A stretch of 64,000 bases of DNA from Abditibacteriota bacterium (GCA_017552965.1 JAFZNQ010000009.1:220564-284563); one strand, 5' to 3'. Positions 2,301-62,636 are shown, numbered from the stretch's first letter. A program made the numbers and translations. Notes: generated by a model not told the origin, from the letters alone.

Positions 2301-2317
2301 AGCCCCTCCGGGGCAAC

Positions 2318-6740: not shown

Positions 6741-6757
6741 ATCGTTTGAGGGCCTTG

Positions 6758-8077: not shown

Positions 8078-8083
8078 GCCCTG

Positions 8084-9598: not shown

Positions 9599-9603
9599 AG
9601 GCT

Positions 9604-11869: not shown

Positions 11870-11882
11870 ATCCTGTGTAGCC

Positions 11883-12479: not shown

Positions 12480-12502
12480 AGCGCCTCCTTCGTATCAGCC
12501 GA

Positions 12503-40953: not shown

Positions 40954-42198
40954 TTATGACTCGTTTTTCGCCAGTGCGGCGTAATGGGCTATCCTGTCCT
41001 CCAGGTCCGGCAGCCGCTCCCGGGTCCCGGGGGCGGTGATGGCCAGGGACAGGTCCCGGGTGGCCGCTTCCTCGTGGCCTATGAGGGCCCAGGTAGCGGT
41101 GATAAGGTTGGCAAACTCGGGGTTTTCCAGAGCCTTGCAGACAAAGCTCTGCCTGGACGAATTGATGTCCTCTCCGGATATCTGCATGAGACCGCGCAGG
41201 TCGCAGAGAGCCTTCACTCTCCTCAGCTGCTCCGGAGTGTTCCGGGAAGGCATGTAGGTCACTGCGTCAAAGCCCAGGTCCGAGAGGGTGTCAAAGAGCA
41301 GCTCCAGATAGCTGTCCTCGAAGGTCTGGGCCTTCTTGTCGCCGGTGACGCTCTCCCCCACGTCTCCCAGATAGGCGTAGGCGGATATGGCTCCTATGGA
41401 CCGGGCAAAGTCTATGAGCTCCCTCACGGGAGGGCATTCCTCCCCCGCGGGGATGAAAAACCGGTCCATCAGGGAGGACTTGAACACTCCCAGCAGGTCA
41501 TACTGCCCGTGTGGGTTGACGGGGTCCCCGAGCCTCTGTCTCTGAGTGGGCGAAAGGGCTATCCCCAGCCCCTGCTCCACGTAGTCCGTCAGGTCCCTGC
41601 CCAGAGGGTGCGCCGCCATGATCTTGCCCGCAAATGCAAAGAGGAGATGCCTCTCGGTCACCGTGCCTCCCTCCTCATAGCGGGAAATGGGCAGCACGTC
41701 CCGGTCAAAGTCCAGCTCTGCGCCCTCTGCCACCTCCGACAGCCGGGCCGTCATGAGCCGGTCTCTCTCGAGACGCAGCTTCCTGTAGGGCGCCAGATAC
41801 CGGTCGCAGGCGTCTATCTGCGTGTGGGGGATGCCGTGGAGGGCCATGTAGGCCATGGTAGGCTGGTCCGGGTTGTTGATCCTTTTCCCTTCCAGAGGAG
41901 TGCCGGCAAAGGAAGCCCGCACCTCAAAGCCTATGGTGGTCCGGATGCCGACTATCCTGCCCGCCTCGATAAACTGCCGGGTCCCTGCCACCGAATCATG
42001 GTCCATGATGCCGCAGGTGGACAGGCCTGCCTGCTTGGACAGCAGTACGGCCTTGGCCGGCGTATAGGGCGAGAAGGAATACACCGTGTGGATGTGGTTG
42101 TTCACATACACGGGGGATGCGGGAGGAAACTCCGTGGCGGCCACCGCCGCCCTGAGGGCCTCCGGATCTTCAAGGGAATCGTGGATCGAGGGATTCAT
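40954..42198 (-). CDS. PHP-domain metal-dependent phosphoesterase
   Basis: NHIHTVYSFSPYTP...GIMDHDSVAG His/Asp motifs of the polymerase-and-histidinol-phosphatase fold; 414 aa. Confidence 0.6.
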   Translation of the reverse strand: MNPSIHDSLEDPEALRAAVAATEFPPASPVYVNNHIHTVYSFSPYTPAKAVLLSKQAGLSTCGIMDHDSVAGTRQFIEAGRIVGIRTTIGFEVRASFAGTPLEGKRINNPDQPTMAYMALHGIPHTQIDACDRYLAPYRKLRLERDRLMTARLSEVAEGAELDFDRDVLPISRYEEGGTVTERHLLFAFAGKIMAAHPLGRDLTDYVEQGLGIALSPTQRQRLGDPVNPHGQYDLLGVFKSSLMDRFFIPAGEECPPVRELIDFARSIGAISAYAYLGDVGESVTGDKKAQTFEDSYLELLFDTLSDLGFDAVTYMPSRNTPEQLRRVKALCDLRGLMQISGEDINSSRQSFVCKALENPEFANLITATWALIGHEEAATRDLSLAITAPGTRERLPDLEDRIAHYAALAKNES

Positions 42199-42249
42199 TC
42201 ACACCTCCGGAAAATGGGATCCGAGTTTACAGACCGCCCCGTCGGGGCG

Positions 42250-43377
42250 TCATTTTTGCTTGTCTTCATACAGCTCCGAGTCCGCCAGATTGATCAGGTC
42301 GGGCACCGAGTCGGCCTTGCTGCCGGTGACGCTGCCCATGGAGGCGCTGATGGTATAGCCCTTGTGCTTGGTGATATCCAGTATCTGCAGCCGCCGGACC
42401 ACGTCGCTCTTGATCTCGTCCAGCTCCTTTTTGATATCGCCGGTCCAGCTGTCCTTGACTATGACGAATTCGTCGCCGCCGTATCTGTAGGGTCTGGCGT
42501 TCTTGCCTCTGCACACCCGCTTCAGGACTCCGGCAAACAGCTGCAGGGCCACGTCGCCCTCATGATGGCCGTAGGTGTCGTTGATGGACTTGAAGCCGTC
42601 CAGGTCCAGCATGATGATGCCCCACTTCTTGTCCTCGGAGGCCTTGCGCTCCATATCCCTGAAGAGCTGGCGCCTGTTGTAGAGGTCCGTGAGCTCGTCC
42701 CGGGAGATATAGGCGGTGATGTTCTGGAAATAGCAGAGTATCATGCCCAGGGTGAGACCTATGGGCAGGAAGGCGGAGGCGGGCCACAGCACGTCCAGCA
42801 GTCCGAATACCACCAGGAGCAGGCAGAACTTGAGTATGTTGGCGTGGTCCTCTCTCTCGGAGTAGTGCTGCTTGTCAAAGTAGGCGATGCCGGAGTGGAC
42901 TATCAGTATGAGACAGGGCAGCCCCAGAGGGACGTACCACAGGTTGTACAAGGGGGTCCTGGTATAGAAGTCGGACCAGAAGAGGGACAGCCTGACCGGG
43001 GTAAGGATGCACAGGACCAGAAAGATGAGATGCAGCAGCCAGGACAGCCTGACCATCATGGGAGCCTTGTCCTTGAAGGTAAAGAGGGCCCCGCCGAAAA
43101 ACAGGCACACAGTGACGTAGAGAGAGGTCTTGAGAGCCAGATCGCAGACGTAATGCCACACCGGGGGCAGAGCGTCGCCCAGCCCGAACCACAGCAGCGA
43201 ATCCAGGGTGTAGATCATGATGAGCACTGCCCCGGATATCATAAATCTTTTGTGCCGGCTCACCTGATCGGATACGCCCCCCATCTTAGCGTAGTGGGCG
43301 TACAGGAAAAAGACTATCACCAGACTCAGGAACAAGAGCTCCAGATATGGCACCAGCGGCATTTCAAAAGGGATCAT
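42250..43377 (-). CDS. Membrane-anchored diguanylate cyclase (6-7 TM helices plus GGDEF)
   Basis: N-terminal polytopic membrane domain; C-terminal GGDEF with RYGGDEF active-site motif and RxxD-like I-site region; 375 aa. Confidence 0.85.
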   Translation of the reverse strand: MIPFEMPLVPYLELLFLSLVIVFFLYAHYAKMGGVSDQVSRHKRFMISGAVLIMIYTLDSLLWFGLGDALPPVWHYVCDLALKTSLYVTVCLFFGGALFTFKDKAPMMVRLSWLLHLIFLVLCILTPVRLSLFWSDFYTRTPLYNLWYVPLGLPCLILIVHSGIAYFDKQHYSEREDHANILKFCLLLVVFGLLDVLWPASAFLPIGLTLGMILCYFQNITAYISRDELTDLYNRRQLFRDMERKASEDKKWGIIMLDLDGFKSINDTYGHHEGDVALQLFAGVLKRVCRGKNARPYRYGGDEFVIVKDSWTGDIKKELDEIKSDVVRRLQILDITKHKGYTISASMGSVTGSKADSVPDLINLADSELYEDKQK

Positions 43378-43479
43378 ACGGCCTGTCCTATATATTCTCC
43401 TTTATTTGCCGGCGCTGCCCGGAGGCAGCCGGCTCAGACTTACACATACTTATTATAGCATTTTTTCATCAAATACACA

Positions 43480-45390: not shown

Positions 45391-45420
45391 AGGGCCTCCG
45401 GGCCCTTTTTTCCTTTTTTC
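45391..45420 (+). terminator. Rho-independent terminator after the phosphodiesterase gene
   Basis: gggcc-tccg-ggccc hairpin followed by ttttttccttttttc. Confidence 0.65.
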
Positions 45421-45542
45421 TCCCCGGTCCATAGACAGGACCGTCATATTTGTGTTATAATATTTATAAATAGATATTTATGGCCTGCCCCCGAGGGACC
45501 CGGGCCGACACCACACGCGAGAGGCATTGACACGACAATATC

Positions 45543-48512
45543 ATGAAAAACAAAGCGCTCGTATACCTTATTATCGGCGGCGTCATCCTGGCCGCCATCA
45601 TAGTCTTCGGCTCCCTCTGGATGAGGTCTGCCGCCGGCAAGGACACCAGGTCCGTCATCAGGAGCCTGAACTCCATGTATCTGGAGGAGCTGGCAGTCCG
45701 CCGCGAGCAGGTAGTGGAGAAAAACCTCAACGAGAACGTAAAGCTCATAGACATAGCCGTAGGCCTTATGACCGCCGAGGACCTCAGGGACACCGGGCAC
45801 CTCATGGCTTATCAGTCCCGTATGAAAAAGCTCTTCAAGCTGGAGCGCTTTGCCTTCGTCAACACCTCGGGCCACATCTATACCTCCACCGGCGTCAAGT
45901 ACGACATAGACGAGTATCCCTTTGACTACAAGACCATCAAAGGACCTCAGGTGGCCGTGAAAAACGTGGCGACCACTCACAAGACGGTGGTCATAGCCAA
46001 GCCGGTGGACAAGGAGATAGCCGTCAGCGGCGACCGGCTCACAGTCTGCTTTATGGAGCAGGACATGAGCGTGCTGCTGGAGGGCGCCTCCATGGACACC
46101 CATGACACCGAGTCCACCTTCTGCAACATCTACACCCGGGAAGGCATCCCCCTCAGCGAGCTGGTGCTGGGCGGCAAGGCCTCCGAGACCAATCTGCTGA
46201 ACGCTCTGGCCAACGCAGACTTTGAACAGGGCTATTCCTACGAGCAGACCGTCCAGGATTTTCAGGGCGGCAAAAAGGGCATGATAGCCTTTTCCTACAA
46301 GGGCACCCGTGAGATGCTGGCCTTTGTGCCCGTCAAGGGCACCGACTGGCAGCTCACCTATCTGGTGCGCGAGAGCGTGGTCAGCTCCCGTATCGGCTCC
46401 GTGTTCAACACGGTGATAGCCAGGAGCCTGGTCCAGTCCGTGGCCTCCGCGGTATTGCTGCTCATACTCTTTGGCATCATCATCACCCAGATGGGCAGAA
46501 ACGTGCGCCTGACCATGGAAAAGGCGTCTGCCGACCTGATCATGGCCCTCTCGCGGAACTACAAGTCCGTGTTCTACGTGGATCTGGACAATGACACCGC
46601 CGCCTGCTACAGGGAGGACTCGGTCCTCACCGACACTCCCCGTCTGAACCAGGTGGTCTCCTACAGACACGCCGTCACCACCTACTCCGCCAGACACGTG
46701 GCGCCGGAGGACAGGGACAAATTCAACGAGTTCGTGGAGCCGGACGCGGTGCGGACCAACGTGGCCAACAACAATCTGTCTCTCCGCTATCTGGAAATGA
46801 CTCCCTCCGGCGAAAGATACACCATGCTGAAGATAGCAGGCGTATCCCACGGCCCCGGCAGCTCCGGCATAGTGTGCATGGGCTTTTCGGACGTGGACGA
46901 AGAGACCCGCCAGTCTCTCCTGCAGCAGCAGGCGCTGCAGACCGCCCTTGACACGGCGGAGGAGGCCAGCAAGGCCAAGACCACCTTCCTCTCCAGCATG
47001 AGCCATGAGATCCGCACCCCCATGAATGCCATCATCGGCCTGGACAGCCTGGCTCTCAGAAACAAGGACCTGCCGGAGGAGACCAGAGATTACCTGACCA
47101 AGATAGGCAGCAGCGCCAAGCATCTGCTGGGCCTCATCAACGACATACTGGACATGAGCCGCATAGAGTCCGGCAGGCTCACCCTGCGCAGCGAGGAGTT
47201 TTCCTTCAGGGACACCCTGGAGCAGATCAACACCATGGTCATGTCTCAGTGCTCGGACAAGGGACTGGAATACACCTGTCAGATGCTGGGAGGCGTCAGC
47301 GACTACTACATCGGCGACAACATGAAGCTGAAGCAGGTGCTGATCAACATACTCTCCAACGCCGTCAAGTTCACCGATGCCCCCGGCAGCATCCGCTTTA
47401 CCGTGGAGCGCCGTGAGACCAACCAGAACCACAGCGTCCTGGTCTTCACCATCAAGGACACGGGCGCCGGCATGGACCAGGATTTCGTGGACCATGAGCT
47501 CTTCAAGCCCTTTACCCAGGCTGAGGCCGGCAAAAACAGCAAATACGGCTCCACCGGTCTGGGCATGGCCATCACCCAAACCATCGTGACTCTCATGAAC
47601 GGCGAGATCCATGTGGATTCCAAGAAGGGCGTGGGCACCACCTTCACCGTGACCATCACCCTGAAAAACGCCGACAGCAATCACGTGGTCTCGGGCTATC
47701 TGGACCTGGCCGATATGAGAGTGCTGATAGTGGACGACGAAGAGGTATCCGCCGAGCACGCCCGCATGGTACTGGAGGAAGTGAGCATCAAAGCAGACGT
47801 GAGCTACAACGGCCCTGACGCCCTGCGCATGGTAGAGGTGGCCCACACCAAGCAGCAGCCCTACAATCTGGTGCTGCTGGACTGGAAGATGCCCGAGATG
47901 GACGGCCTGCAGGTAGCGGAGCAGATCAGGTCCCGCTACGACAGCGAGACCACGGTCATCATCCTCACCTCCTACAACTGGGAGGAGATCTATGACCAGG
48001 CTCTCCACGTAGGCGTGGACAGCTTTTTGGCCAAGCCTCTCTTTGCCTCCAATATCATCAGCGAATTTGAGACCATAGCCCGCAAGAACAATATGCAGCT
48101 CCGCAGGGAGAGGCCCAAGGCCGAACTGAAGGGCAGGCACATCCTGCTGGCAGAGGACATCCTCATCAACGCCGAGATCATGACAGAGCTGCTGGAGATC
48201 AGAGAGGTCCAGGTGGACCACGCCGAGAACGGCGAGGAAGCCCTGGCCCTGTTTGAAAACCATCCCTCCGGCTATTACAGCGCCATTCTCATGGACATAC
48301 AGATGCCCAGGATGGACGGTCTGGAGGCTGCCAGAGCCATCAGAGCCTCCCTGCATGAGGATGCCAGGAGCATACCCATCATCGCCCTTACGGCCAACGC
48401 CTTTGACGAGGACGTGCAAAAGAGCCTGCAGGCAGGTATGAACGCCCACCTGAGCAAGCCGGTGGAGCCGGAGACTCTCTTTGAGACTCTGGAGACCCTG
48501 ATCGTCGATTAG
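45543..48512 (+). CDS. Hybrid sensor histidine kinase: periplasmic Cache-like sensor between two TM helices, cytoplasmic PAS-like region, HisKA, HATPase_c and two receiver domains
   Basis: TM1 at residues 7-27 and TM2 ~290-312 bracket a ~260 aa extracytoplasmic domain. H-box FLSSMSHEIRTPMNAI; N/G boxes (NILSNAVKFT, DTGAGM, GSTGLGMAI). REC1 (VLLDWKMPEMDG) and REC2 (ILMDIQMPRMDG); no HPt. Candidate promoter TAGACA-18-TGtTATAAT at 45432-45461. Confidence 0.88.
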   Translation: MKNKALVYLIIGGVILAAIIVFGSLWMRSAAGKDTRSVIRSLNSMYLEELAVRREQVVEKNLNENVKLIDIAVGLMTAEDLRDTGHLMAYQSRMKKLFKLERFAFVNTSGHIYTSTGVKYDIDEYPFDYKTIKGPQVAVKNVATTHKTVVIAKPVDKEIAVSGDRLTVCFMEQDMSVLLEGASMDTHDTESTFCNIYTREGIPLSELVLGGKASETNLLNALANADFEQGYSYEQTVQDFQGGKKGMIAFSYKGTREMLAFVPVKGTDWQLTYLVRESVVSSRIGSVFNTVIARSLVQSVASAVLLLILFGIIITQMGRNVRLTMEKASADLIMALSRNYKSVFYVDLDNDTAACYREDSVLTDTPRLNQVVSYRHAVTTYSARHVAPEDRDKFNEFVEPDAVRTNVANNNLSLRYLEMTPSGERYTMLKIAGVSHGPGSSGIVCMGFSDVDEETRQSLLQQQALQTALDTAEEASKAKTTFLSSMSHEIRTPMNAIIGLDSLALRNKDLPEETRDYLTKIGSSAKHLLGLINDILDMSRIESGRLTLRSEEFSFRDTLEQINTMVMSQCSDKGLEYTCQMLGGVSDYYIGDNMKLKQVLINILSNAVKFTDAPGSIRFTVERRETNQNHSVLVFTIKDTGAGMDQDFVDHELFKPFTQAEAGKNSKYGSTGLGMAITQTIVTLMNGEIHVDSKKGVGTTFTVTITLKNADSNHVVSGYLDLADMRVLIVDDEEVSAEHARMVLEEVSIKADVSYNGPDALRMVEVAHTKQQPYNLVLLDWKMPEMDGLQVAEQIRSRYDSETTVIILTSYNWEEIYDQALHVGVDSFLAKPLFASNIISEFETIARKNNMQLRRERPKAELKGRHILLAEDILINAEIMTELLEIREVQVDHAENGEEALALFENHPSGYYSAILMDIQMPRMDGLEAARAIRASLHEDARSIPIIALTANAFDEDVQKSLQAGMNAHLSKPVEPETLFETLETLIVD

Positions 48513-48544: not shown

Positions 48545-51376
48545 ATGAGCCAAGAACACACACCGCAAGAGTATCACAGATACCTGTCACCCGTTGACGT
48601 CTGGGCGCTGGCCTTCGGCTGTATGGTGGGCTGGGGAGCCTTTGTCATGCCCGGCAACACCTTTCTTCCCGCCGCAGGGCCCGCAGGGACCATTTTGTCC
48701 CTGCTGCTGGGCGCCGCCATCATGATGGTCATAGCTCTCAATATGACCTATCTCATGAGGCGTTATCCCTCCACGGGAGGCATATACGCCTACACCAAGA
48801 ACCTGCTTGGCAGGGACCACGCCTTTATCAGCTCCTGGTTCCTCACGGTGTCCTATATCACCATACTGTTTCTCAACGGCACCGCTCTGTTTCTCATATT
48901 GAGGACCATATTCGGCCCCTCGTTCCATGCCGGCGCCCACTACCACATAGCCGGCACGGACATTTACGTCAAGGAGGTGCTCACCTCGGTGCTGGCTCTG
49001 GCGGGAGTGGGCTCTATATTCATCTTTTCCAAGCCCTTCCTCCAGAAGCTGCACACGGTGCTGGCCATCTGCCTTTTTGCAGGCTTAGGGGCCCTCACGG
49101 TCATATGCCTCTCCCGGGGGGCAGTCACGCCGGACACTCTCTTTTCCTACGGGACCCTGGGCATCCACAAGGGCAATGCCATACTGGGCCTGATGGTCCT
49201 GGCTCCCTGGGCCTTCGTGGGCTTTGAGATCATCTCCTTTGACACGGCCCACTACAGCTTTAGCATCACCCGGAGCAACGCCGTGATCATCACAGCCATA
49301 GCGGCTGCGGCTCTGGCCTACATTGCCTGCGCCGTCATTTCCGTATCGGTGGTCCCGGACGGCTGCGCTTCCTGGCAGGAATACATCTCCGGCCTGGGCA
49401 GCAGGACGGGCGTGGAGTCGGTGCCCACCTTTTATGCGGCAAAGGCCGCGCTGGGCGACTGGGGGCTGGCTCTCGCCGGCTTTACGGCCCTGTGCGCCAT
49501 CCTCACGGGCCTCATAGCCTCCTACCGGGGCAGCATGCGTCTCCTGTCCACCATGGCCGAGGACCAGATACTGGGCCACATATTCAACGACTCGGACGCC
49601 TGCATACTGTTTGTCATGGCCCTGTCCATCATATTGTCCTTCCTGGGGCGCAACACTCTCATCAGGTACGTGGACCTCACCTCCTTCGGAGCCATAGTCG
49701 CCTACGGCTACACCTGTCTCACGGCGATGCTGTCCGCCAGGGCCGACGGCAGGTCCGCATTCGCGCTCCTGGGATGGGTCGGCGTGGCGGTATCCGTCAT
49801 ACTGGGACTGGTGCAGCTGGTACCGGGCATCCTGCCTGCGGCTCTGGACCCCATGTGCAAGGAGTCCTTTCTGCTCCTGTCCCTTTGGTGTCTTCTGGGC
49901 TTCGCCTTTTACTGGCGCACCATCAACCGCAACACTCTGTCCGAATACAGAAACCTGTCCTATTCCGGCATCATACTGTTTGCCATACTGATGTATTCTG
50001 CCATCATATGGATGTCCAAGACCCTGTATCTCAACGGGGATCCCCGGCATATGCACGCTCTGATCCGCATATGCACCGTCACGGTGGTGGGCATCATCAC
50101 GGCAGGCTCCCTGCTCATGTTTATCATACTGTCCTTCGTCAGAAAAAAGCAGATGGAGCTGGAGCACGAAAAGTTCAAGGCGGAGAACGCCCGCGAAAAA
50201 GCCCTGGAGGGCAGCAAGGCCAAGAGCCGCTTTTTGTTCAACATGTCCCATGACATACGCACTCCCATGAACGCCATACTGGGCTACACTGCCCTGGCCC
50301 GGAAGCAGGACTCTGCGGAGGTCATGAAGGGCTATCTGCAAAAGATAGACAAATCCGGCCGTCACCTGCTGGACCTCATCAACGACGTGCTGGAGATGAG
50401 CCGCATAGAAAACGACAAAAAGGAGCAGCAGCCGGAGCCCGTGGATATAGCGGAGCTCTTTGACGACCTGCGGGACCTCTTTGCCGAGCAGATGACCGAC
50501 AAGGGACTGGCCTTCACCGTGGACAACTCGCGCATCAGAAACCGTTTTATCCGCTGCGACAAGATATGCCTCAACAGAGTGCTCATCAATCTGCTGGACA
50601 ACTCCTACAAGTTCACCCCGGCCGGCACCGTGTCCGTCAGGGTCGAACAGACAGAGGACGCCCCCGCCGGCTCCGCTGCCTTTACCATCACTATCAGCGA
50701 CACGGGCATAGGCATGTCCGAGGAGTTCGCCGCCAATATGTTCAGCTCCTTTGAAAGGGAGCGCACCTCCACCGTCAGCGGCATCCAGGGCACGGGACTG
50801 GGACTCTCCATCACCAAGAGCCTGGTGGAGCTCATGGGAGGCACCATTACCCCGGTCACCACCGCCGGCAAAGGCACCACCTTTGTCATTGACGGACTCG
50901 TCTTTCCTGTCCTGCCTGCCGATGAAGCGTCCGCTCTGGCCGGTGAAGAGGCGGACACTGCCAATGCGGACTTTTCCGGCAAGAGGCTGCTGCTGGTGGA
51001 GGACAACATCATCAACATGGAGATAGCCGAGGAGATACTGGGCGAGATGGGCTTTGACATCACCACTGCCGACAACGGACAGGCGGCCATCGACACCCTC
51101 ACCTCTCCCGCCACGGGCCCCATAGATCTGATCCTGATGGACATACAGATGCCTGTGATGAACGGCTACGAAGCGGCGAGAGCCATCCGCTCCCTGGAGG
51201 ACCCCGGCCTCTCGCGCATCCCCATCATAGCCATGACAGCCAACGCTTTTCAGGAAGATATACGGAACGCTATGGAGGCGGGCATGCAGGGGCATATAGC
51301 CAAGCCCATCGACGTGAAGGATATGACCCGGACCATCGCCAAAGTCCTGAAAGAGGGACCGGTGGCCGGCGCATAG
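48545..51376 (+). CDS. APC-superfamily amino-acid/polyamine permease domain fused to a histidine kinase (HisKA + HATPase_c) and a receiver domain
   Basis: Residues 1-~520: 12-14 hydrophobic helices with APC motifs (DVWALAFGCMVGWGAFVMPGN, GGIYAYTK, AFVGFEII). Then H-box FLFNMSHDIRTPMNAILGY, N-box LINLLDNSYKFT, G-boxes DTGIGM / GTGLGLSI, and REC with LILMDIQMPVMNG. 943 aa as one uninterrupted ORF starting 32 nt after the previous kinase. Confidence 0.85.
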   Translation: MSQEHTPQEYHRYLSPVDVWALAFGCMVGWGAFVMPGNTFLPAAGPAGTILSLLLGAAIMMVIALNMTYLMRRYPSTGGIYAYTKNLLGRDHAFISSWFLTVSYITILFLNGTALFLILRTIFGPSFHAGAHYHIAGTDIYVKEVLTSVLALAGVGSIFIFSKPFLQKLHTVLAICLFAGLGALTVICLSRGAVTPDTLFSYGTLGIHKGNAILGLMVLAPWAFVGFEIISFDTAHYSFSITRSNAVIITAIAAAALAYIACAVISVSVVPDGCASWQEYISGLGSRTGVESVPTFYAAKAALGDWGLALAGFTALCAILTGLIASYRGSMRLLSTMAEDQILGHIFNDSDACILFVMALSIILSFLGRNTLIRYVDLTSFGAIVAYGYTCLTAMLSARADGRSAFALLGWVGVAVSVILGLVQLVPGILPAALDPMCKESFLLLSLWCLLGFAFYWRTINRNTLSEYRNLSYSGIILFAILMYSAIIWMSKTLYLNGDPRHMHALIRICTVTVVGIITAGSLLMFIILSFVRKKQMELEHEKFKAENAREKALEGSKAKSRFLFNMSHDIRTPMNAILGYTALARKQDSAEVMKGYLQKIDKSGRHLLDLINDVLEMSRIENDKKEQQPEPVDIAELFDDLRDLFAEQMTDKGLAFTVDNSRIRNRFIRCDKICLNRVLINLLDNSYKFTPAGTVSVRVEQTEDAPAGSAAFTITISDTGIGMSEEFAANMFSSFERERTSTVSGIQGTGLGLSITKSLVELMGGTITPVTTAGKGTTFVIDGLVFPVLPADEASALAGEEADTANADFSGKRLLLVEDNIINMEIAEEILGEMGFDITTADNGQAAIDTLTSPATGPIDLILMDIQMPVMNGYEAARAIRSLEDPGLSRIPIIAMTANAFQEDIRNAMEAGMQGHIAKPIDVKDMTRTIAKVLKEGPVAGA

Positions 51377-51448
51377 AATTTTGCCCCAACACAACGGGAA
51401 ACAGAGACGGAGCGTCGATGCTGCCGTATTTTACAAGGAAAAAATATC

Positions 51449-52369
51449 ATGAGACATGTATTACAAGCCCTGCTGGCAGTCGGCCTTCTGGCCCTGGCCG
51501 CAGGAGCGTTCTGCAACACCGTGAAGGTCGCTGTCCCCGCAGATCCGGAAGCATTCGCCCGGACGACGGTCGGCGCTCCCGAATACTGTGAGGAATACGT
51601 CACGGACACAGATATCTATACCTATCTGATCAGGGAATACGCCGACGTGACGATCGTCGAAAAAAAGGTGAAGATGAGAATGTTCACAGAGGACGTGAGA
51701 AAGGTCAACACCGTGTCCAGTGACAAGCAGTTCCTCACAGGCAGCGCCGACAAAACAAAGTGGGTGTCCCTCGAGACTCCCGGCGCCGGAGTATGCCGGG
51801 ACAGGATCTACAGCGTGACCAAAGACGGGGACACCGTCTCGGTCCTGGCCCTGCTGACCGCCTGGGGCAGCTCGCCTCTGCTGCGCGACGAAAACATAGC
51901 GCTGGACGAGATACAGAGCGGCAAAGCGGATGGAAGGACCGTGATACTGAGGACCATCCTGACCGCCCCCTTCTTTCAGTCCGACAACACAGGCAAGGTG
52001 ACGCAGGTGCCCGACTCCGCCGAGATGATCGCTCCCGACGTGGTCCGTCTGTCCTATGCCGACGGAGCCGTGGAGCACTGGATGCTGAAGCCGGACAGGG
52101 TGTTTGTCGCCAACAACAGACAGGGCGACCGGGACCCCGACAGGATGCTGCTGTGGACCAACGGCGTGGGCAAGGGCACTCAGCGCTCCCTCAACCATCC
52201 GGCCGAGTCCTGCCGCTTTGACCCCGACGTCTCCCGCGAGCCCTCATACGACAAGCCACAGGGCTCCCCCGCTCCGGACAAAAAGGCCCGGGCGGATGCG
52301 CCGGGCATATGGTCGGCCCTGGTGGCGCATATCAACGCCTTTTTTGCCCATATCTTCCGGGCAGCCTGA
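51449..52369 (+). CDS. Secreted protein of unknown function (306 aa)
   Basis: Signal peptide MRHVLQALLAVGLLALAAGAFC; no recognisable domain; followed by a strong terminator. Confidence 0.55.
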   Translation: MRHVLQALLAVGLLALAAGAFCNTVKVAVPADPEAFARTTVGAPEYCEEYVTDTDIYTYLIREYADVTIVEKKVKMRMFTEDVRKVNTVSSDKQFLTGSADKTKWVSLETPGAGVCRDRIYSVTKDGDTVSVLALLTAWGSSPLLRDENIALDEIQSGKADGRTVILRTILTAPFFQSDNTGKVTQVPDSAEMIAPDVVRLSYADGAVEHWMLKPDRVFVANNRQGDRDPDRMLLWTNGVGKGTQRSLNHPAESCRFDPDVSREPSYDKPQGSPAPDKKARADAPGIWSALVAHINAFFAHIFRAA

Positions 52370-53395: not shown

Positions 53396-54628
53396 CTATT
53401 TGGCTCCTGCCACCACTTCCACTGATTCCATGGCTATCATCAGCTCTTCGTTGGTGGGGATGCGCAGGATGCTGCCGTTTTTCTTCACGGACAGGTCCAC
53501 GTTGCCGTAGAAGACGTCCTTGGTGGGGTCCAGCTCGTAGGACAGCTGATGGTTCAGCTCCAGGTCCAGCTCTATGCCCAGGAACTCCAGGTCGGAGCAT
53601 ATCTGCTTGCGCTGGGGCTCGCTGTTCTCACCCACGCCGCCGGTAAACACTATGGCGTCCAGGCCGTTCATGGCGGCCGCATAGGAGCCTATGTATTTCT
53701 TGACTCTGTAGGCGAACATCCTGAAGGCCAGCATAGCCCTGGGGTCCGTCTCCTTGTTGTCTATGATGTCTCTCATGTCGGAGGAGCGCCCGGAGATGCC
53801 CAGGAGACCGCTTTCCTTGTTCATCAGAGTGTCCACTTCCTTGGGGCTCTTGCCCAGTGTCTCCTCTATGAAGGTGACCACAGAGGGGTCCAGGTCACCC
53901 GTGCGGGAGCCCATGACGCAGCCCGCCACGGGGGTGAAGCCCATGGTGGTGTCTATGACCTTGCCGCCCTTGACGGCAGCCATGGAGCAGCCGTTGCCCA
54001 GATGGCAGGTGACTATCTTGCTGTCCTCGGGTCTGACGCCCTTTTCCTTCAGCATTTCCATAGCCTGCTTTGCCACGAATTTGTGGCTGGTGCCGTGGAA
54101 GCCGTAGCGTCTGATGCCGTATTCCTTGTAGAGCTCGTAGGGCAGAGCGTACATATAGGCGTAGTCGGGCATGGTCTGATGGTAGGCAGTGTCAAACACA
54201 GCCACCTGAGGCACGCCCTTCATCACGGCCAGACAGGCCTCGATGCCCATGGCGTTGGCGGGATTGTGCAGAGGAGCCAGAGCGCTCAGCTCCTTGATAT
54301 CCTGCAGCACGCTGTCTGTGACCAGCACGGGCTCGGAATACTTTTCGCCGCCGTGGACCACTCTGTGGCCCGCTATGTCTATCTCGGATATGTCGCCGAT
54401 GACGCCCCTGTCGGGATCCGTGAGGAGCGAAAAGACCTTGTCCAGAGCCACCTTGTGGTCCGACAGATAGCCTTCGAATTTTTCTTTTTTGTCGGAGGTG
54501 TACGTGAGGGAGCTGCCGTCGATGCCTATGCGGTCGCAGAGCCCCTTGGCCATCACCTTGCCCGTGTCGGTGTCTATGAGCTGAAACTTCAGCGAAGACG
54601 AGCCGGAATTGAGTACCAGTACCTTCAT
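53396..54628 (-). CDS. ackA: Acetate kinase
   Basis: MKVLVLNSGSSSLKFQL N-terminal signature; 410 aa; directly downstream of pta. Confidence 0.95.
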   Translation of the reverse strand: MKVLVLNSGSSSLKFQLIDTDTGKVMAKGLCDRIGIDGSSLTYTSDKKEKFEGYLSDHKVALDKVFSLLTDPDRGVIGDISEIDIAGHRVVHGGEKYSEPVLVTDSVLQDIKELSALAPLHNPANAMGIEACLAVMKGVPQVAVFDTAYHQTMPDYAYMYALPYELYKEYGIRRYGFHGTSHKFVAKQAMEMLKEKGVRPEDSKIVTCHLGNGCSMAAVKGGKVIDTTMGFTPVAGCVMGSRTGDLDPSVVTFIEETLGKSPKEVDTLMNKESGLLGISGRSSDMRDIIDNKETDPRAMLAFRMFAYRVKKYIGSYAAAMNGLDAIVFTGGVGENSEPQRKQICSDLEFLGIELDLELNHQLSYELDPTKDVFYGNVDLSVKKNGSILRIPTNEELMIAMESVEVVAGAK

Positions 54629-54637
54629 CTTACCTTC

Positions 54638-55642
54638 CTATTTTGAATATATTGCCTGGCAGGCCGTAATGGCAGCCACGTTCATGATGTCGGAAGCCTT
54701 GCAGCCCCGGGACAGATCGTTGACGGGCTTGCGGAGACCCTGCAGCACAGGACCGTAGGCCTCGGCCTTGGCCAGCCTTTCGGTGAGCTTGTAGGCTATA
54801 TTGCCGCAGTTCAGGTCGGGGAAGATGAGTATGTTGGCCTTGCCCGCCACGGGGCTGCCGGGAGCCTTGGACTTGCCGATGGCTTCGATGATGGCAGCGT
54901 CGGCCTGGAGCTCTCCGTCCAGCATGAGGCCGGGCTCTCTCTCCTTGGCTATCTCGGTGGCGCGGATCACCTTGTCTATGATCTCATGCTTGGCGGAGCC
55001 CTTGGTGGACAGGCTCAGCATAGCCACCCGGGGCTCTATGCCGCACAGGTTCTGCATGGTCTTGGCAGACTGGATGGCTATCTCTGCCAGCTCTTCGTCG
55101 GTGGGATCGATGACCAGACCCGAGTCGGCGTAGATGAACACACCGTCTTCGCCGTAGGGGCAATCGGGCACTATCATCAGGAAAAATGCGGACACGGTCT
55201 TGCAGCCGGGAGCCGCCTTGATGATCTGCAGAGCAGGACGTATGGTATCGGAGGTGGAGTGTGTAGCGCCGGACACCTGTCCGTCGGCATCGCCTTCGTT
55301 GACCATCATACAGCCGAAGTGCAGAGGATCCTTGATGACCTCCACGGCCTTCTCTTCGGTCATGCCCTTCTTCATGCGCAGCTCGTAAAAACGATGAGCA
55401 TAGCGGTCAAAGTCGGGGCTGGACGCAGGATCGACTATCCTGCAGCCTGAAATGTCGGCGCCGCACTTCTTGACGGCTTCTTCGATTTTTTCGATAGGAT
55501 TGATCAGAACTACCTTGGCAATCCCTTCCTTGACGATCATTTCAGCAGCCTGGATAGTCCTCACATCTTCTGCTTCGGGAAGACATATGGTGAGCTGTGC
55601 TTCCTTGGCTTTCTTGTAGATGCTTTCCATTACGTTTGGCAT
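54638..55642 (-). CDS. pta: Phosphate acetyltransferase
   Basis: 334 aa; PTA_PTB fold motifs (...ICLPEAEDVRTIQAA..., C-terminal ...NVAAITACQA); RBS AAGGAG. Confidence 0.9.
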   Translation of the reverse strand: MPNVMESIYKKAKEAQLTICLPEAEDVRTIQAAEMIVKEGIAKVVLINPIEKIEEAVKKCGADISGCRIVDPASSPDFDRYAHRFYELRMKKGMTEEKAVEVIKDPLHFGCMMVNEGDADGQVSGATHSTSDTIRPALQIIKAAPGCKTVSAFFLMIVPDCPYGEDGVFIYADSGLVIDPTDEELAEIAIQSAKTMQNLCGIEPRVAMLSLSTKGSAKHEIIDKVIRATEIAKEREPGLMLDGELQADAAIIEAIGKSKAPGSPVAGKANILIFPDLNCGNIAYKLTERLAKAEAYGPVLQGLRKPVNDLSRGCKASDIMNVAAITACQAIYSK

Positions 55643-56926: not shown

Positions 56927-58375
56927 CTAAGGGCCGTCGGTTTTTTCGGGGCGGGAAAAACGGCTGTTGTAGACCTCGGTCAGGGCCAGATACATCTCGA
57001 TGGAATGGCTCTGTATGACCTTGGGCGAGGCGGCTCCGTCGTGGATGAACGCCCAGATGATACCGTCAAAATCCTTGGGCACCCTGACGGCGTCCTTCAG
57101 GTTGCCCTCCACCATGGCCTTGCCCATGGCCACGCAGAACTCGTAGGTGGTCATGGGAGTCACCTTTTTGATGATGCCCTTTTTTGAGTACACTATCTGA
57201 TAAAAGGCCACGGGATTGGGGGCCAGACGGGTCAGGTCACCGATGATCTTGTTTTTTTCGGCCGCGGAAAAGCCCACGCATTTTACTCCGTCGGCTACCC
57301 GGGTGAAGACCTCCTTCAGCCGGGCCTTTTCGTCGGTGGAAAAGGAGCCGGAGTCTATGACGGCGCCGTCCACTCCGAAGTCCCACATGGGGATGCCCGG
57401 CACCAGGTCGCCTTCATACATAAAGCTGAAGCGGCCCGGCTTGTCTCTCATGGGATGTCTGGTGTAGTTGGGACAGGCGTACACGTAGCAAAACACCTTC
57501 TCAAAGCCCAGCTTGTCTATGCCCAGACTCATGATCTGAGCCACGGCCGCGCCTCTGGAATGGCCCGTCAGCATTATCACGCTGCCGGCGGGCAGAGGAT
57601 GCTCCGAGAGATAGCGCTTCACTATGGCGCCTCCGTCCGCCGCAGCGGCGGTAAAGCCCTTGTGGGCCCCGGTGTCGCCTATGTCAAAGTTGGAAAACCA
57701 TTCTCCGGCCACGGTCCCCCGGACCACGCACATCAGCAGCTCCCGCTCTTTGGAGCCGTCGTATATCTTCCTGTGGGCCAGATATATCCCGGCCCTGTCG
57801 CTGCGCTCGGTGTGCTCGGCGCCGTAATAATTGTATTTTTCCACGTCCCGGAAGCCCATGGACTCCAATAGTCCTCCCAGGGCCTCCGTGTCCTGCTTGC
57901 CGCCCCGCAGATAGCCGGCGCCGCAGAGCATGATGCCCAGCCGGCCCAGAGCGGGCTCGTAGTCCTCCGGCCTGCCTCCGAACATCTCGCCTCCGAAGGC
58001 AGCGTCTGCCGTGTATTCGGAGGACACGGAGCGGGACCCGTTGAGCCAGCCCGTATGCAGCAGCCGGACGCTGACGGGCGCGGGAGGGCTGATGAGCCGA
58101 TCCGGACGGGATGCTCCGGTGCTGATGACCCTGAGACGCAGGGTCTCGCCGGGGACTATCTTTTCCCAGCTGATGACAGCCTCGCCGTCCCGGGAATAGG
58201 CCGACGCCACAAAGCCCTCGTTTTCCTCTACGGCGTCATCCCAGAGGGACACCTTGAAGGTCTCGCCCGGGTCTCTGACCACTATGCCCCGCTCCCTGTC
58301 ATAGGTCACGGTCTCTGCCGCCATCAGGCTGCAGGCCGCTGCAATAAGGGCAAATACACACAGGATCTTTTTCAT
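56927..58375 (-). CDS. Secreted class-3 lipase-like alpha/beta hydrolase
   Basis: Signal peptide MKKILCVFALIAAACSLMA; nucleophile elbow LTGHSRGAAVAQI (GHSxG); 482 aa. Confidence 0.65.
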   Translation of the reverse strand: MKKILCVFALIAAACSLMAAETVTYDRERGIVVRDPGETFKVSLWDDAVEENEGFVASAYSRDGEAVISWEKIVPGETLRLRVISTGASRPDRLISPPAPVSVRLLHTGWLNGSRSVSSEYTADAAFGGEMFGGRPEDYEPALGRLGIMLCGAGYLRGGKQDTEALGGLLESMGFRDVEKYNYYGAEHTERSDRAGIYLAHRKIYDGSKERELLMCVVRGTVAGEWFSNFDIGDTGAHKGFTAAAADGGAIVKRYLSEHPLPAGSVIMLTGHSRGAAVAQIMSLGIDKLGFEKVFCYVYACPNYTRHPMRDKPGRFSFMYEGDLVPGIPMWDFGVDGAVIDSGSFSTDEKARLKEVFTRVADGVKCVGFSAAEKNKIIGDLTRLAPNPVAFYQIVYSKKGIIKKVTPMTTYEFCVAMGKAMVEGNLKDAVRVPKDFDGIIWAFIHDGAASPKVIQSHSIEMYLALTEVYNSRFSRPEKTDGP

Positions 58376-58384
58376 GCTGACTCC

Positions 58385-58420
58385 AAAAAGGGAGTCCCGC
58401 CCCTGCGGGCGGGATACTCC
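58385..58420 (-). terminator. Rho-independent terminator after carB
   Basis: ggagtcccgccc-ctgc-gggcgggatactcc hairpin. On the minus strand it is followed by CTTTTTGG. Confidence 0.75.
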
Positions 58421-58432
58421 AGGTCTATAGCG

Positions 58433-61400
58433 TCACAGTCCCAGATATTTCTGGATGCTGCGCACTGTGGTTTGCTGATGTCTGGCTGTCTCCAGACCTA
58501 TAAGGGTGGCTCTGGCTGCGGCCACCGTGGTGATGATGGGGATGCCCCTGGCTATGGCGCTGGCCCTTATCTGCACCTCGTCGCTCTTGGGCTTGCGGCC
58601 CGAAGGAGTGTTGATGATCAGATCCACCTGATTGTTGATGATCAGGTCGGTGGGGTCGGGGCGCCCGTTGCCTATCTTGCTCACGGTCTTGATGCCGTCG
58701 ATACCGGCAGCGGCGAGCTCTCTCGCTGTCCCCTTGGTGGCGTAGATGGTGAAGCCCAGGCTCTGGAGCTTCGAAGCGATATACTCGGCGTGCTTCTGGT
58801 CCTTGTGGGCCAGAGACAGGAAGGCAGTCCCCTTTTCGGGTATGCGGTTGCCGGCGGCTATCTGAGCCTTCAGATAGGCCACGCCGAAGTTCTGGTCTAT
58901 GCCCATGACCTCGCCGGTGGACTTCATCTCCGGGCCCAGCATGCAGTCCACTCCGGAGAACTTCACGAAGGGGAACACAGCTTCCTTGATGCACACGTGC
59001 TCGGGAGTCACCTCGGAGGTGATGCCCTGCTCCTTGAGGCTGACCCCCAGCATGATCCGGGTGGCTACCTTGGCCCACTGGACGCCGGTGGCCTTGGATA
59101 CGAAGGGCACTGTCCTCGAAGCTCTGGGGTTGACCTCCAGTATGTAGATGTCGTCGCCCTTGACGGCAAACTGTATGTTCATCAGACCCCGCACGTTCAG
59201 CTCTTCGGCCAGCAGGTGGGTCTGCCTCTTGATCTCATCCACTATATATCTCTTCAGGGTCCAGGCCGGTATGGAGCAGGCCGAGTCGCCGGAGTGGACG
59301 CCTGCATATTCGATGTGCTCCATGACTCCGCACACGAGAGTGGTCTCGCCGTCGGAGATGGCGTCCACGTCGATCTCGATGGCGTCATCCAGGAACTTGT
59401 CTATGAGCACCGGCTTTTCGGGGCTGGCCACCACTGCGCTCTTCATGTAGTTGGTCAGGGTCTCGTCGTCATAGACTATCTCCATGGCCCTGCCGCCCAG
59501 CACGTAGGAGGGGCGCACCAGCACGGGATAGCCCACCTTGTGAGCGGCCTCGATGGCCTCCTCTATGTTGACGGCTATGCCGTTCTCGGTCTGCCTAAGA
59601 CCCAGCTTCCGGAGCATCTCGGCAAAGAGCTCCCTGTCCTCTGCCCGGTCTATGGACTCGGGGCTGGTGCCCAGTATCCTGACGCCGGCCTTCTTCAGGG
59701 CCAGAGACAGATTCAGAGGAGTCTGTCCGCCCAGCTGGACTATGACGCCCGCGGGCTTTTCTATCTCCACTATATTCAGCACGTCTTCCCGGGTGAGAGG
59801 CTCAAAGTACAGCTTGTCCGAGGTGTCGAAGTCCGTGGACACGGTCTCGGGGTTGCAGTTGATGATGATGCTCTCGTAGCCCTGCTCCTTGAGGGCGTAG
59901 GAGGCGTGGACGCAGCAATAGTCAAATTCTATGCCCTGTCCGATCCTGTTGGGGCCGCCGCCCAGAATGATGACCTTTTTCTTGTTGTCCGTGGGATAGG
60001 CCTGATCCAGGGTCTCATAGGTAGAATAATAGTAGGGCTTCTCGGCCTCTATCTCGCCGGAGCAGGTGTCCACCTGATAATAGGTAGCGGAGGCTCCCTT
60101 TTTCTCTCTCAGATCCCGGATGGTCATCTCGTCCGTCTTCAGCAGGAAGGCCAGCTGTATGTCGGAGTAGCCCCATTCCTTGGCCGTCTTGATGAGGTCA
60201 AAGGGGACAGAGTCCACCGAGTATTTCAGGAGCTCGGTCTCCAGGTCCACCAGCTGGCGCACGTTTTCGATGAACCAGTGGTCTATCTTGCTCAGGTCGT
60301 ATATCTCCTGAGTGGAGAAGCCGTTTTCGATGGCGTGCTTCAGATAGAAGATGCGGTCGGCGTTGGGCTGGCCCAGCTTTTGCTTGATCACGTCTCTGGG
60401 AGCGCCACTGCGGGGCAGCAGGTCCTTGCCGTCGGCTCCCAGACCGTAGCGGCCCGTCTCCAGGGAGCGGATGCCCTTCTGCAGAGCCTCCTTGAAGTTG
60501 CGGCCTATGGCCATGGACTCGCCCACGGCCTTCATCTGAGTATTCAGAGTGGGGTCGGCGCCGGCAAATTTTTCGAAGGCAAAGCGGCACACCTTCATGA
60601 CTATGTAGTCGATGGAGGGCTCGAAGTCGCTCATGGTCTTGCCGGTGATGTCGTTGCGTATCTCGTCAAAGGTGAGCCCCACTGCCAGCTTGGCAGCCAC
60701 ACGGGCTATGGGGAAGCCGGTAGCCTTACTGGCCAGAGCGGAGGATCTGGACACCCTGGGGTTGATCTCGATGATGACCATCTCCCCGTTGTCCGGATTC
60801 AGACCAAACTGCACGTTGGTGCCGCCGCCCCGCACGTCGATGGCGCGGATGATCTTCCGAGCCACGTCCGCCAGACGGTTGATCTCCTCGGTGGAGGTGC
60901 TCATGGCGGGAGCCACCACGATGGAGTCGCCTGTGTGGACGCCCATGGGGTCTATGTTTTCCATGCTGGTGATGACGATGACGTTGTCCTCGCAGTCCCG
61001 CATGACTTCAAACTCTATCTCCTTCCAGCCCAGCACGGACTCTTCCACCAGAGTCTGATGCACGGGAGAGGTGGCCAGAGCCTTGGGGAGCATCTTCTGA
61101 TACTCTTCCATATTGTAGGCGGTGGCGCCGCCGGCGCCGCCCATGGTAAAGGCAGGTCTCAGAATGGCGGGGAAGCCTATTTCCCTGATGATCTCCATGC
61201 CCTCTTCCACCGACTCGGCTATGCCGCTGCGGGGAGTCCGGACGCCTATGGATTCCATGGTCTCCTTGAAGAGCTTGCGGTCCTCTGCCTTGGCTATGGC
61301 TTTTTCGTCACAGCCCAGCAGCTCCACGCCGTATTTGTCCAGAATGCCCTCGCGCTTCAAAAAGGTGCCCATGTTGAGGCCCATCTGGCCGCCCAGAGTG

Positions 61401-61663
61401 GGCAGCAGGGCGTCGGGGCGTTCCTGTGCTATGATGGCTTCCAGGGATTCGATGGTCAGAGGCTCTATGTAGGTGGCGTCTGCCATCTGGGGGTCGGTCA
61501 TGATAGTCGCGGGATTGGAGTTCACCAGGACTATCTCATAGCCCTCTTCCTTCAGAGCCTTGCAGGCCTGAGAGCCGGAGTAGTCAAACTCGCAGGCCTG
61601 GCCTATGACGATGGGTCCGGAGCCGATAATGAGTATTTTTTTGATATCTGTTCTTTTTGGCAT
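58433..61663 (-). CDS. carB: Carbamoyl-phosphate synthase large subunit
   Basis: 1076 aa; duplicated ATP-grasp modules and a C-terminal MGS-like domain; N-terminal [21 protein letters not shown]. Confidence 0.95.
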
Positions 61664-61664
61664 T

Positions 61665-62636
61665 TTATTCCTCCCGTGTTTTGATAGCGCTCACCAGATC
61701 CTGGGGCTTGTAGCAGAAGCCCATGACCATACCGTCCTCGCTGACGAAGGCCTCGGGGCTCTTGTCATGGAGGTTGGCTGCGGTGATCCGTATCCCTTTT
61801 TGCTCTTCCACCACGTAGCAGTGGTTCTGACTGGTGATCAGATTCTTGCGGGATGTACCCGGCTTCACAGGGATATTGGTCCCGTGATGCCCCAGTCCCA
61901 GAGACTTGATGCGGTAGCCTGCCGCCGCCGCGGCCAGGGCTGCGCCGTCTCCGAAGCCCACTACGGGCTTGCCGCCGGCAGCCCCTCTGATGGACTCCAG
62001 CACTTCGTCGCTGTCCGCCAGAAAAGCGGGAGCGTTGGATACTATGAGGACGTCAAAGGGCTTGCCTTCGCCGGCCACGGCTATGCCGCTGTCGGCGAGC
62101 ATGGAAAAGAAGGACTTGCCGGCCCCCAGATCCAGCACCGCTGCGGTCATGGCGGGAGATTTGACCTTCAGGGGCTTCATCACGGGAGTGTAGTCCACCT
62201 CGAAGGCCTTCAGCCGCTTTTTCAGCTCGGCCGCGGTGAGCTTTTTCTCCGACAGCACCGCCATCTGCTCGCCCTTTTCCCGCAGATGGACCAAGATGGC
62301 TCTGGTGTCAAAGCCTTCGCCAAAGGCCACGTCTGCCTTATCCACAAAGTCCAGCAGGGTCTCCTTGGCCCGGAAGTTGCTCATGGTGCGGCTGTACTCC
62401 TTGCAGATGATGCCTGCGGGACACACCACGTCGGACTCATTGTCCTCTCTGTTGATGCCCGTGGCGCCTATGATGGGAAAGGTGAACAGCATGATCTTTC
62501 CCGTGTTGGCAGGGTTCGTGATGACCTCTTCGTAGCCGAAGCCGCCGGTGTATATGCTCAAAAAGCCCGCGGTCTCCTGTACGCTGCCCAGACATTTGCC
62601 TTCAAATACGGCGCCGTCTTTGAGTGTTAAAAACAT
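61665..62636 (-). CDS. carA: Carbamoyl-phosphate synthase small-subunit homolog with a degenerate (predicted inactive) glutamine amidotransferase domain
   Basis: 323 aa. The CarA N-domain is conserved ([26 protein letters not shown]). In the GATase domain the Cys elbow GxCxGHQ reads [16 protein letters not shown] (Cys to Gly229; His-Gln to Ala-Ala), and the His/Glu of FxxxGHPE read GFCYKPQ (His to Lys310, Glu to Gln312). Its stop abuts the carB start. Confidence 0.8.

Follow-up and report, generated by a model that had tools for sequence, protein, structure and literature searches.

The window analyzed in this study, a 64,000-nt stretch of one strand from an Abditibacteriota bacterium (GCA_017552965.1, JAFZNQ010000009.1:220564-284563), contains at 48545..51376 (+) a gene for a 943-amino-acid (aa) protein in which an APC-family permease domain is followed by a DHp domain, a catalytic ATPase domain, and a receiver. 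This permease-kinase, delimited by its open reading frame (ORF), Pfam matches, alignment, and AlphaFold2 (AF2) models, was confirmed to be a real, intact, and conserved gene. Its new element is the direct joining of a permease of the APC family proper (SLC7-like) to a kinase. With slightly more than even confidence, we propose that SLC7/APC permease domains are an undescribed and widespread sensory module, which would report the occupancy or flux of amino-acid-like solutes via transmembrane helices 13 and 14 (TM13-TM14) and would drive many outputs, including cyclic di-GMP (c-di-GMP) signaling in the rumen via histidine phosphotransfer (Hpt) proteins.

Architecture and integrity of the permease-kinase

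The uninterrupted 943-codon frame noticed in a first-pass annotation of the window was found to start with ATG and to contain zero internal stops, and the five motifs quoted there were all present at the expected places of the translation, namely, WALAFGCMVGWGAFVMPGN (aa 20-38), GGIYAYTK (aa 78-85), AFVGFEII (aa 223-230), FLFNMSHDIRTPMNAILGY (aa 563-581), which holds His569 (nt 50249-50251), and LILMDIQMPVMNG (aa 862-874), which holds Asp866 (nt 51140-51142). The following segments were delimited, all on the plus strand. (i) The LeuT-fold APC-family (SLC7/CAT-like) core with TM1 to TM12 covers aa 14-461 (48584..49927) and was assigned by Pfam, a PDB profile search, Foldseek, and AF2; the Pfam family AA_permease_2 matched aa 14-431 with 43.8 bits (gathering cut-off, 27 bits; model positions 1 to 411 of 427), and AA_permease was matched as well. 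(ii) A TM13-TM14 hairpin (aa 473-531, 49961..50137), supported by both AF2 models and the topology count of Lys and Arg, is added to this 12-helix core. (iii) A cytoplasmic signaling helix and the DHp/HisKA domain with the phospho-acceptor His569 follow at aa 532-623 (50138..50413), as seen in the full-length AF2 model and in a HisKA match of 65.1 bits at aa 559-623. (iv) The HATPase_c catalytic domain (aa 672-782, 50558..50890; 86 bits) and (v) the receiver domain (Response_reg, aa 816-931, 50990..51337; 85.4 bits) with the phospho-acceptor D866 were both assigned by Pfam and by invariant residues.

Every catalytic residue to be expected from the HisKA, HATPase_c, and receiver assignments of the first pass was found. 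In an alignment of the window protein with 29 homologues (30 sequences), H569, the N box (N682 and N686), the G1 box (D719-x-G721-x-G723), the G2 box (G749-T-G-L-G753), and the receiver residues E819/D820, D866, T898, and K920 were invariant; the residue set predicted for a hybrid HisKA-class kinase is complete. When NCBIfam was searched for an orthologous named kinase, only the generic hybrid-kinase models TorS, LuxQ, BarA, and ArcB matched, far below their cut-offs, and the protein is therefore an orthologue of no named kinase. Pfam detected no HAMP, PAS, GAF, or STAC domain in it.

The AF2 models show the 12 core helices, TM13 (residues 473 to 496), and TM14 (from residue 500 onward). The topology, asked for in the first pass, comprises 14 TMs with both ends inside, with 14 Lys and Arg residues inside against 3 outside; with 14 helices and an internal N terminus, the kinase is therefore cytoplasmic. 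In the full-length model (pLDDT 76.1), residues 500 to 587 form a single unbroken helix that runs from TM14 over a charged linker into DHp helix 1, where His569 lies; DHp helix 2 spans residues 591 to 622. The last hydrophobic segment ends 29 residues before the phospho-accepting histidine in 109 of the 115 close homologues and 27 to 29 residues before it in 32 of 49 distant representatives; more distant relatives carry an extracytoplasmic insert of 60 to 70 residues between TM13 and TM14. We infer that the TM13-TM14 hairpin is an adapter that relays core movement to the kinase and brings the C terminus to the cytoplasmic side.

Because a frameshift, the loss of a stop codon, or a chimeric assembly could also have joined a permease gene to a kinase gene, we inspected the junction. 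It is colinear and gap-free across the 29 aligned homologues, with R533, K535, E540, and E542 invariant, so that conservation continues across it. The identical protein is present on three independently read contigs (NCBI entry MBR4748355.1, "amino acid permease [Abditibacteriota bacterium]"), more than 120 clusters of proteins 925 to 945 aa long have the same architecture, and 70 species-level loci carry it; the fusion, whose junction the first pass had proposed to verify, is kept in hundreds of independent assemblies. The 14-TM topology, moreover, places the kinase correctly in the cytoplasm. The contig is a metagenome assembly, and nothing was found in favor of an artifact, to which we attach next to no probability. 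The permease-kinase gene has a GC content of 0.589 and a GC content at third codon positions (GC3) of 0.79, and ackA and carB, which are adjacent, have the same values. A recent horizontal transfer to the genome was rejected for lack of compositional support, GC and GC3 being equal to those of housekeeping genes. The native-composition references were ackA-pta (acetate kinase and phosphotransacetylase; 53396-55642, -) and carB-carA (carbamoyl-phosphate synthase; 58433-62636, -).

Pfam, the PDB profile search, and Foldseek all place the N-terminal domain in the APC family proper (TC 2.A.3, SLC7/CAT-like); it has a LeuT fold and is not an SLC5/SSS protein. A single-sequence search of the PDB with the permease domain returned zero matches at E <= 1. 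With a family profile, the best match was CAT1/SLC7A1 (E 4e-12), and further matches included plant CAT4, GkApcT (a bacterial CAT homologue; E 2e-5), xCT, y+LAT2, and LAT1/2. The AF2 model of aa 1-545 (pLDDT 69.6, pTM 0.74) was compared with the PDB by Foldseek; the top matches were GkApcT (6f34, E 1e-10), AdiC, ApcT, and BasC, with target-normalised TM-scores of 0.73 to 0.80, those of GkApcT, AdiC, and BasC being 0.75 to 0.80, and E values of ~1e-10 to 1e-8, and LeuT and the cation-chloride cotransporters ranked below the APC proteins. The APC fold recognized in the first pass was thus upheld. The label "APC-superfamily" used there does not set the protein apart from CbrA and misses the novelty, because SSS/SLC5 is itself part of that superfamily (PMC7918813).

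Curated transporter subfamilies in NCBIfam (CAT, ABT, BcaP, PotE, etc.) all scored far below their cut-offs, the best being TIGR00909 with 50 bits against 557, and the domain therefore represents a separate APC clade. For the ligands suggested in the first pass (an amino acid, a polyamine, or an ethanolamine-like compound), which are candidates only, the sole hint was that the CAT, ABT, and BcaP subfamilies are weakly similar, with scores below threshold. Helix breaks at residues 28 to 30 and 219 to 224 of the AF2 models (moderate pLDDT, 70 to 76) correspond to the broken TM1 and TM6. In the APC family, the TM1 motif G-x-G and the TM6 motif (F/Y)-x-G-F-(D/E) bind the carboxylate and amino groups of the substrate. 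Here, the clade signature consists of G29-W30-G31 at the TM1 break and P221-W-A-F-V-G-F-E228 at the TM6 break (clade-wide, P-W-A-F-x-G-F-E), together with conserved residues in TM3, TM8, and TM10. In the profile alignment, GCMVGWGAFV is paired with GSTLGAGVYV of CAT1 and AFVGFE with AFVGFD; the middle residue of G-x-G is Trp throughout the clade, whereas other APC members have Ser, Thr, or Ala. Of the 540 positions of the permease domain, about 150 do not vary among homologues with ~53 to 55% identity to the window protein and a mean column identity of 73% among themselves.

Size, outputs, and distribution of the permease clade

When only the permease part (aa 1-540) was used as query, 1120 proteins were retrieved at E <= 1e-3. 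The 120 best of these are, apart from a few truncated entries, 905 to 945 aa long, 50 to 55% identical, and composed of the same four Pfam domains. We also scanned 1.84 billion representatives of 50%-identity clusters with HMMER and obtained 1665 matches at E <= 1e-3, 865 at <= 1e-10, and 289 at <= 1e-30. As to whether the domain order is conserved or a singleton, a point raised in the first pass, it is widespread and neither a singleton nor rare. Homologues are labeled only "amino acid permease" or, generically, "histidine kinase/CheY-like", so that they are not annotated as a known sensor family, and the label of plain "amino acid permease" constitutes an annotation problem for the family.

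The best 150 representatives from the HMMER scan were then typed by domain. About 47 have the order APC-histidine kinase-receiver (APC-HK-REC), 16 are APC-HK, about 20 are APC-GGDEF, and 65 consist of the permease only; the last number is an upper bound, as many are fragments of fused proteins, exemplified by the seemingly free P0177, which clusters with a 744-aa member and is a fragment of a fused protein. A Pfam scan of the long untyped members revealed APC joined to HD_5 (HD-GYP; three members), SpoIIE/PP2C (two members), His_kinase (PF06580) with HATPase_c in a LytS-type arrangement (one member), GGDEF with EAL (one member), and a TupA-like ATP-grasp domain (one member, P0169, 790 aa). The ATP-grasp tail of P0169 is not a signaling output and is an exception to the sensor-module pattern.

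Two observations bear on the relation between the permease core and its output. (i) When permease cores were compared, a GGDEF-fused protein was the nearest neighbor of 9 of 56 kinase-fused members and of all three HD-GYP-fused members; since neighbors of this kind often differ in output, outputs have therefore been swapped repeatedly. (ii) Whether the fusion partner is a kinase, GGDEF, HD-GYP, or PP2C domain, and also in free members, the signature residues of TM3, TM8, and TM10 and of the broken helices TM1 and TM6 are equally kept; one of the free members is WP_297671161.1, a free-standing 505-aa protein of Desulfovibrio that carries the G-W-G signature. The first-pass suggestion that the permease domain may act as a sensor input is strengthened by the joining of the clade to at least six other output domains; a module reused in this way is typically a sensory input.

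In a Desulfovibrio locus (L088, 3673-9476), the free permease lies between a gene for a dCache chemoreceptor and one for a 614-aa GGDEF protein, 114 bp downstream on the same strand, and this arrangement is the split counterpart of the APC-GGDEF fusions. Other loci contain a second clade member next to the permease-kinase: a free permease split in two ORFs in L028 (10806-12670), an APC-GGDEF protein in L036 (4017-6347), and an APC-GGDEF-REC-GGDEF protein in L043 (3214-7590).

In a scan with one genome per GTDB species, relatives were found in at least 576 species-level genomes. The best 80 loci came nearly all from ruminant gastrointestinal metagenome-assembled genomes (MAGs), with goat, sheep, roe deer, yak, buffalo, and reindeer as hosts. 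They were distributed over Bacillota (Lachnospiraceae, Oscillospiraceae, Ruminococcus, Anaerovoracaceae, Christensenellales, Erysipelotrichaceae, and Selenomonadales), Actinomycetota (Eggerthellaceae and Olsenella), Chloroflexi, Spirochaetales, Lentisphaeria/Victivallales, and Fibrobacter. Loci L007 to L086 thus represent at least six phyla at 45 to 55% identity to the window protein, although some MAG labels may be binning errors. The family appears to follow habitat, not lineage. In a Clostridia MAG (GCA_017464305.1; L001, 1-5615), the kinase pair adjoins a block of relaxase, MobC/NikA-like, primase, and SNF2-helicase genes; such a block is typical of a conjugative element and may help to explain the spread across phyla in the rumen.

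Candidate signal path and competing explanations

Upstream of the permease-kinase, and ending 32 nt before it, the window contains a partner hybrid histidine kinase of 989 aa (45543..48512, +) with a Cache-like extracytoplasmic N-terminal sensor, assigned by Pfam (dCache_1, weak, E 2e-4; HisKA, 478-544; HATPase_c, 591-708; two Response_reg domains). A sigma-70-like promoter (45432..45461, +) with TAGACA, an 18-nt spacer, and TG-TATAAT matches 11 of 12 consensus positions, has an extended -10 element, and lies directly 3' of a terminator-like hairpin (45391-45406). Because of this site and the 32-nt intergenic gap, the two kinase genes are predicted to form a two-gene operon that the promoter would serve.

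The gene context was counted in 52 related loci with enough upstream sequence. In 24 of these, a kinase with an N-terminal sensor homologous to that of the window partner is encoded within 400 bp of the permease-kinase, and 22 of the 24 partner genes lie upstream on the same strand; the two kinases appear to travel as a unit across phyla. Some other hybrid kinase was present in 32 of the 52 loci and a REC-GGDEF-EAL protein of ~565 aa in 22. When all remaining ORFs of the flanks were clustered without supervision, a single large family emerged. It consists of a 113-aa protein that is encoded in 31 loci and that Pfam identifies as Hpt; its gene usually has the REC-GGDEF-EAL gene on one side and the kinases on the other. 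The arrangement is illustrated by locus L072, with HK-REC-REC (816-3425), REC-GGDEF-EAL (3438-5141), Hpt (5138-5479), PAS-HK-REC-REC (5503-7968), APC-HK-REC (7971-10787), and HK-REC (10784-12670). The whole cassette is also carried by the one cultured strain among the best 80 loci, Ruminococcaceae bacterium FB2012 (L078). In the linked regulators, the first GGDEF domain is degenerate in 28 of 28 cases (GG[DE]EF motif in none), five have an extra catalytic GGDEF domain, and the EAL motifs EALxR, DDFGxGYS, and EGVE are intact in 25 to 27 of the 28. Because GG[DE]EF is never present in that domain and the EAL motifs are mostly intact, the recurrent output in the relatives is predicted to be a phosphorylation-controlled c-di-GMP phosphodiesterase.

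We marginally favor the view that the window protein is a membrane "transceptor"-type hybrid sensor kinase with the permease domain as input for an amino-acid-like solute and an Hpt/EAL relay as output. The solute would bind the permease domain at the canonical TM1/TM6 site, and occupancy or the conformational cycling that it drives would be relayed through the TM13-TM14 hairpin. Because TM14 is continuous with DHp helix 1 in the model, its movement would shift the autophosphorylation of His569 and thereby set the balance between kinase and phosphatase activities. The phosphoryl group would pass from His569 to Asp866 of the protein's own receiver and, by analogy with the related loci, to a stand-alone Hpt and on to a REC-(degenerate GGDEF)-EAL regulator, with breakdown of c-di-GMP as the result; the cotranscribed Cache-type kinase (45543-48512) would probably feed the same relay or Hpt. 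We infer the role of the permease as signal input, and likewise the direction and sign of control, the ligand, and the use of Hpt and EAL by the window protein.

A number of observations weigh against this proposal. (i) Neither an Hpt homologue nor an EAL domain was found in the window, and its only receivers are those of the two kinases; the output of the window protein is therefore extrapolated from relatives that are 45 to 55% identical. (ii) In about half of the related loci, the partner kinase or the EAL regulator is missing from the vicinity. (iii) In the N-terminal AF2 model, residues 34 to 43 and 220 to 239, in the TM1 and TM6 break regions, have pLDDT values below 50, and residues 230 to 235 remain below 50 in the full-length model. 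(iv) The AF2 models are monomers; histidine kinases act as dimers. (v) The proton-coupling K191 in TM5 of GkApcT aligns to a hydrophobic position here, in a weak hidden Markov model alignment, and the coupling Lys of GkApcT and ApcT would thus appear to be missing.

The last point would also fit a pure receptor, in which the permease domain, like yeast Ssy1, binds an external ligand and signals, and net transport has been lost. Such a receptor would agree as well with the distance of the domain from all NCBIfam transporter subfamilies (50 against 557 bits for TIGR00909), with the bulky and unusual W30 throughout the clade, and with the reuse of the module with many signaling outputs. The same signature, including G-W-G, is nevertheless present in truly free permeases of ~505 aa (WP_297671161.1), and a loss of transport is not demonstrable from sequence alone. 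Furthermore, CbrA, the closest characterized analogue, both transports and signals (PMC7918813). We regard a pure receptor as possible but rather unlikely. We lean slightly toward a domain that, like that of CbrA, would still translocate its substrate, given that the whole signature is common to free and fused members and that CbrA transports (PMC7918813).

A role as anchor or scaffold is clearly less probable. In that case, the signal would reach the system through the Cache-type partner or as a cytoplasmic cue, and the permease-kinase would be a phosphate sink, a phosphatase, or a branch of the relay. In line with this, the protein is often paired, in a conserved manner, with a hybrid kinase equipped with an extracytoplasmic sensor of its own, and a CbrA variant without the transporter domain signals when overexpressed (PMC7918813). 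However, the ~150 invariant permease positions, which include the TM1/TM6 substrate-site motifs, go far beyond the needs of an anchor, no cytoplasmic PAS or GAF domain is present to take another signal, the linker length is fixed, and in roughly half of the loci the partner kinase is not encoded in the vicinity.

Control might also run in the opposite direction, the kinase and receiver being a tail by which the phosphorelay state tunes the permease, comparable to the action of c-di-AMP on KimA. APC-fold transporters with cytoplasmic regulatory domains do exist, KimA and NKCC1 were among the Foldseek matches, and P0169 carries a nonsignaling tail. Against this, HisKA kinases, GGDEF, HD-GYP, and PP2C, to which the permease is fused, are well known as output or transmitter domains, in relay logic the linked Hpt and REC-EAL genes come after a kinase, and the rigid TM14-DHp helix of the model would correspond to sensor-kinase geometry. 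We consider this reverse control improbable, and marginally more so than an anchor.

Comparison with known systems and window neighbors

The SLC5/SSS fusions of the CbrA type, cited in the first pass as the known transporter-kinase fusions, remain the closest characterized systems (PMC7918813). Like the permease-kinase, the SLC5/STAC kinases CbrA, CrbS/MxtR, and RpuS of Pseudomonas, Vibrio, and Sinorhizobium have an N-terminal LeuT-fold transporter fused to HisKA/HATPase_c (PMC7918813, PMC9100948, PMC13022988), and CrbS/MxtR is likewise a hybrid kinase with a C-terminal receiver. The transporter domain of CbrA binds and transports histidine (PMC7918813); its role in signaling is not settled, with STAC and PAS lying between transporter and kinase (PMC7918813, PMC13022988). 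Several differences were noted. (i) The CbrA-type transporter is of the SSS/SLC5 family with 13 TMs, whereas the domain described here is of the APC family proper, with 12+2 TMs and no SSF match in Pfam. (ii) The CbrA type inserts STAC and PAS, whereas here TM14 enters the DHp domain via a fixed 29-residue linker. (iii) The hosts are Proteobacteria in the CbrA type, in contrast to mainly rumen Bacillota and other gut phyla here. (iv) The outputs are the transcription factors CbrB and CrbR, compared with linked Hpt and REC-EAL phosphodiesterase proteins in the relatives of the window protein. As the permease-kinase fails two of the three defining features of SLC5/STAC proteins, it works like that family and is not a member of it.

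In Ks-Amt5 of Kuenenia stuttgartiensis, likewise, a transporter-family membrane domain leads directly into a histidine kinase at the C terminus, with phosphorylation dependent on the substrate concentration (PMC10433425). Its fold, however, is that of an Amt/Mep/Rh trimeric channel and not the LeuT fold, and in the literature covered here it is treated as a single case, whereas the present module is reused with many outputs. Among the hybrid-kinase networks, SagS/HptB of P. aeruginosa and CfcA-CfcR of P. putida are likewise described as combining several hybrid kinases with a stand-alone Hpt and a receiver-GGDEF/EAL regulator in one relay; their sensors are described as periplasmic (HmsP-like, CHASE3, or GAF) and not transporter derived, and in the relatives studied here the linked GGDEF domain is degenerate in all 28 cases. 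In LysP-CadC of E. coli and in yeast Ssy1 and Gap1, an APC-family permease is the sensing element and the signaling protein is separate. These permeases act in trans, whereas permease and kinase form one chain here; the free Desulfovibrio permease beside a GGDEF gene resembles the trans case more. Gap1 is mentioned in PMC11109136.

The first-pass statement that this is not a characterized architecture agrees with our search of the full-text literature, in which no description of the permease-kinase family was found; coverage of subscription journals was thin, so that an earlier mention is possible. A targeted look through two censuses of c-di-GMP and HD-GYP domains likewise revealed no permease-type sensor domains. 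The architecture is already visible in databases and the concept has precedent; no description was found of its breadth, modular outputs, minimal coupling, and link to c-di-GMP. Bacterial transporter-kinase fusions have so far been described as rare oddities (CbrA/CrbS and Ks-Amt5), and transporter-kinase transceptors are still called "rare" in recent literature (PMC13022988), whereas this family is large. If our proposal is correct, a single module would drive histidine kinases, diguanylate cyclases, HD-GYP and EAL phosphodiesterases, and PP2C phosphatases, and its fixed linker and lack of intervening domains would make it the simplest natural system in which the cycle of a LeuT fold becomes a kinase signal. 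Many structures and a known pharmacology are available for the SLC7-like fold, and since in the model the last membrane helix is also the phospho-acceptor helix, the readout of the transporter cycle is directly testable. The data also suggest a link between nutrients and the control of c-di-GMP, and hence of attachment and biofilm, in fiber-degrading communities of the rumen.

Several further ORFs of the window were inspected. Long antisense ORFs of 769 to 1209 aa were observed at 45444-48449 (-), 49085-51394 (-), 40984-43458 (+), and 58055-61684 (+); no Pfam match was found in the two that were scanned, and they look like shadow ORFs that result from a GC3 of ~0.8 and not like genes. Two genes upstream of the kinase pair, a 375-aa GGDEF protein is encoded (42250-43377, -), which has no receiver and whose first 225 residues have no Pfam match. 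The downstream 306-aa ORF (51449-52369, +), which has a signal-peptide-like N terminus (MRHVLQALLAVGLLALAAGA), was rejected as a partner, as it has no Pfam match and no homologue in the 80 related loci. The other neighbors, namely, a phosphodiesterase/lectin-fold protein, an EamA transporter, pta-ackA, and carAB, appear to be unrelated to the permease-kinase.

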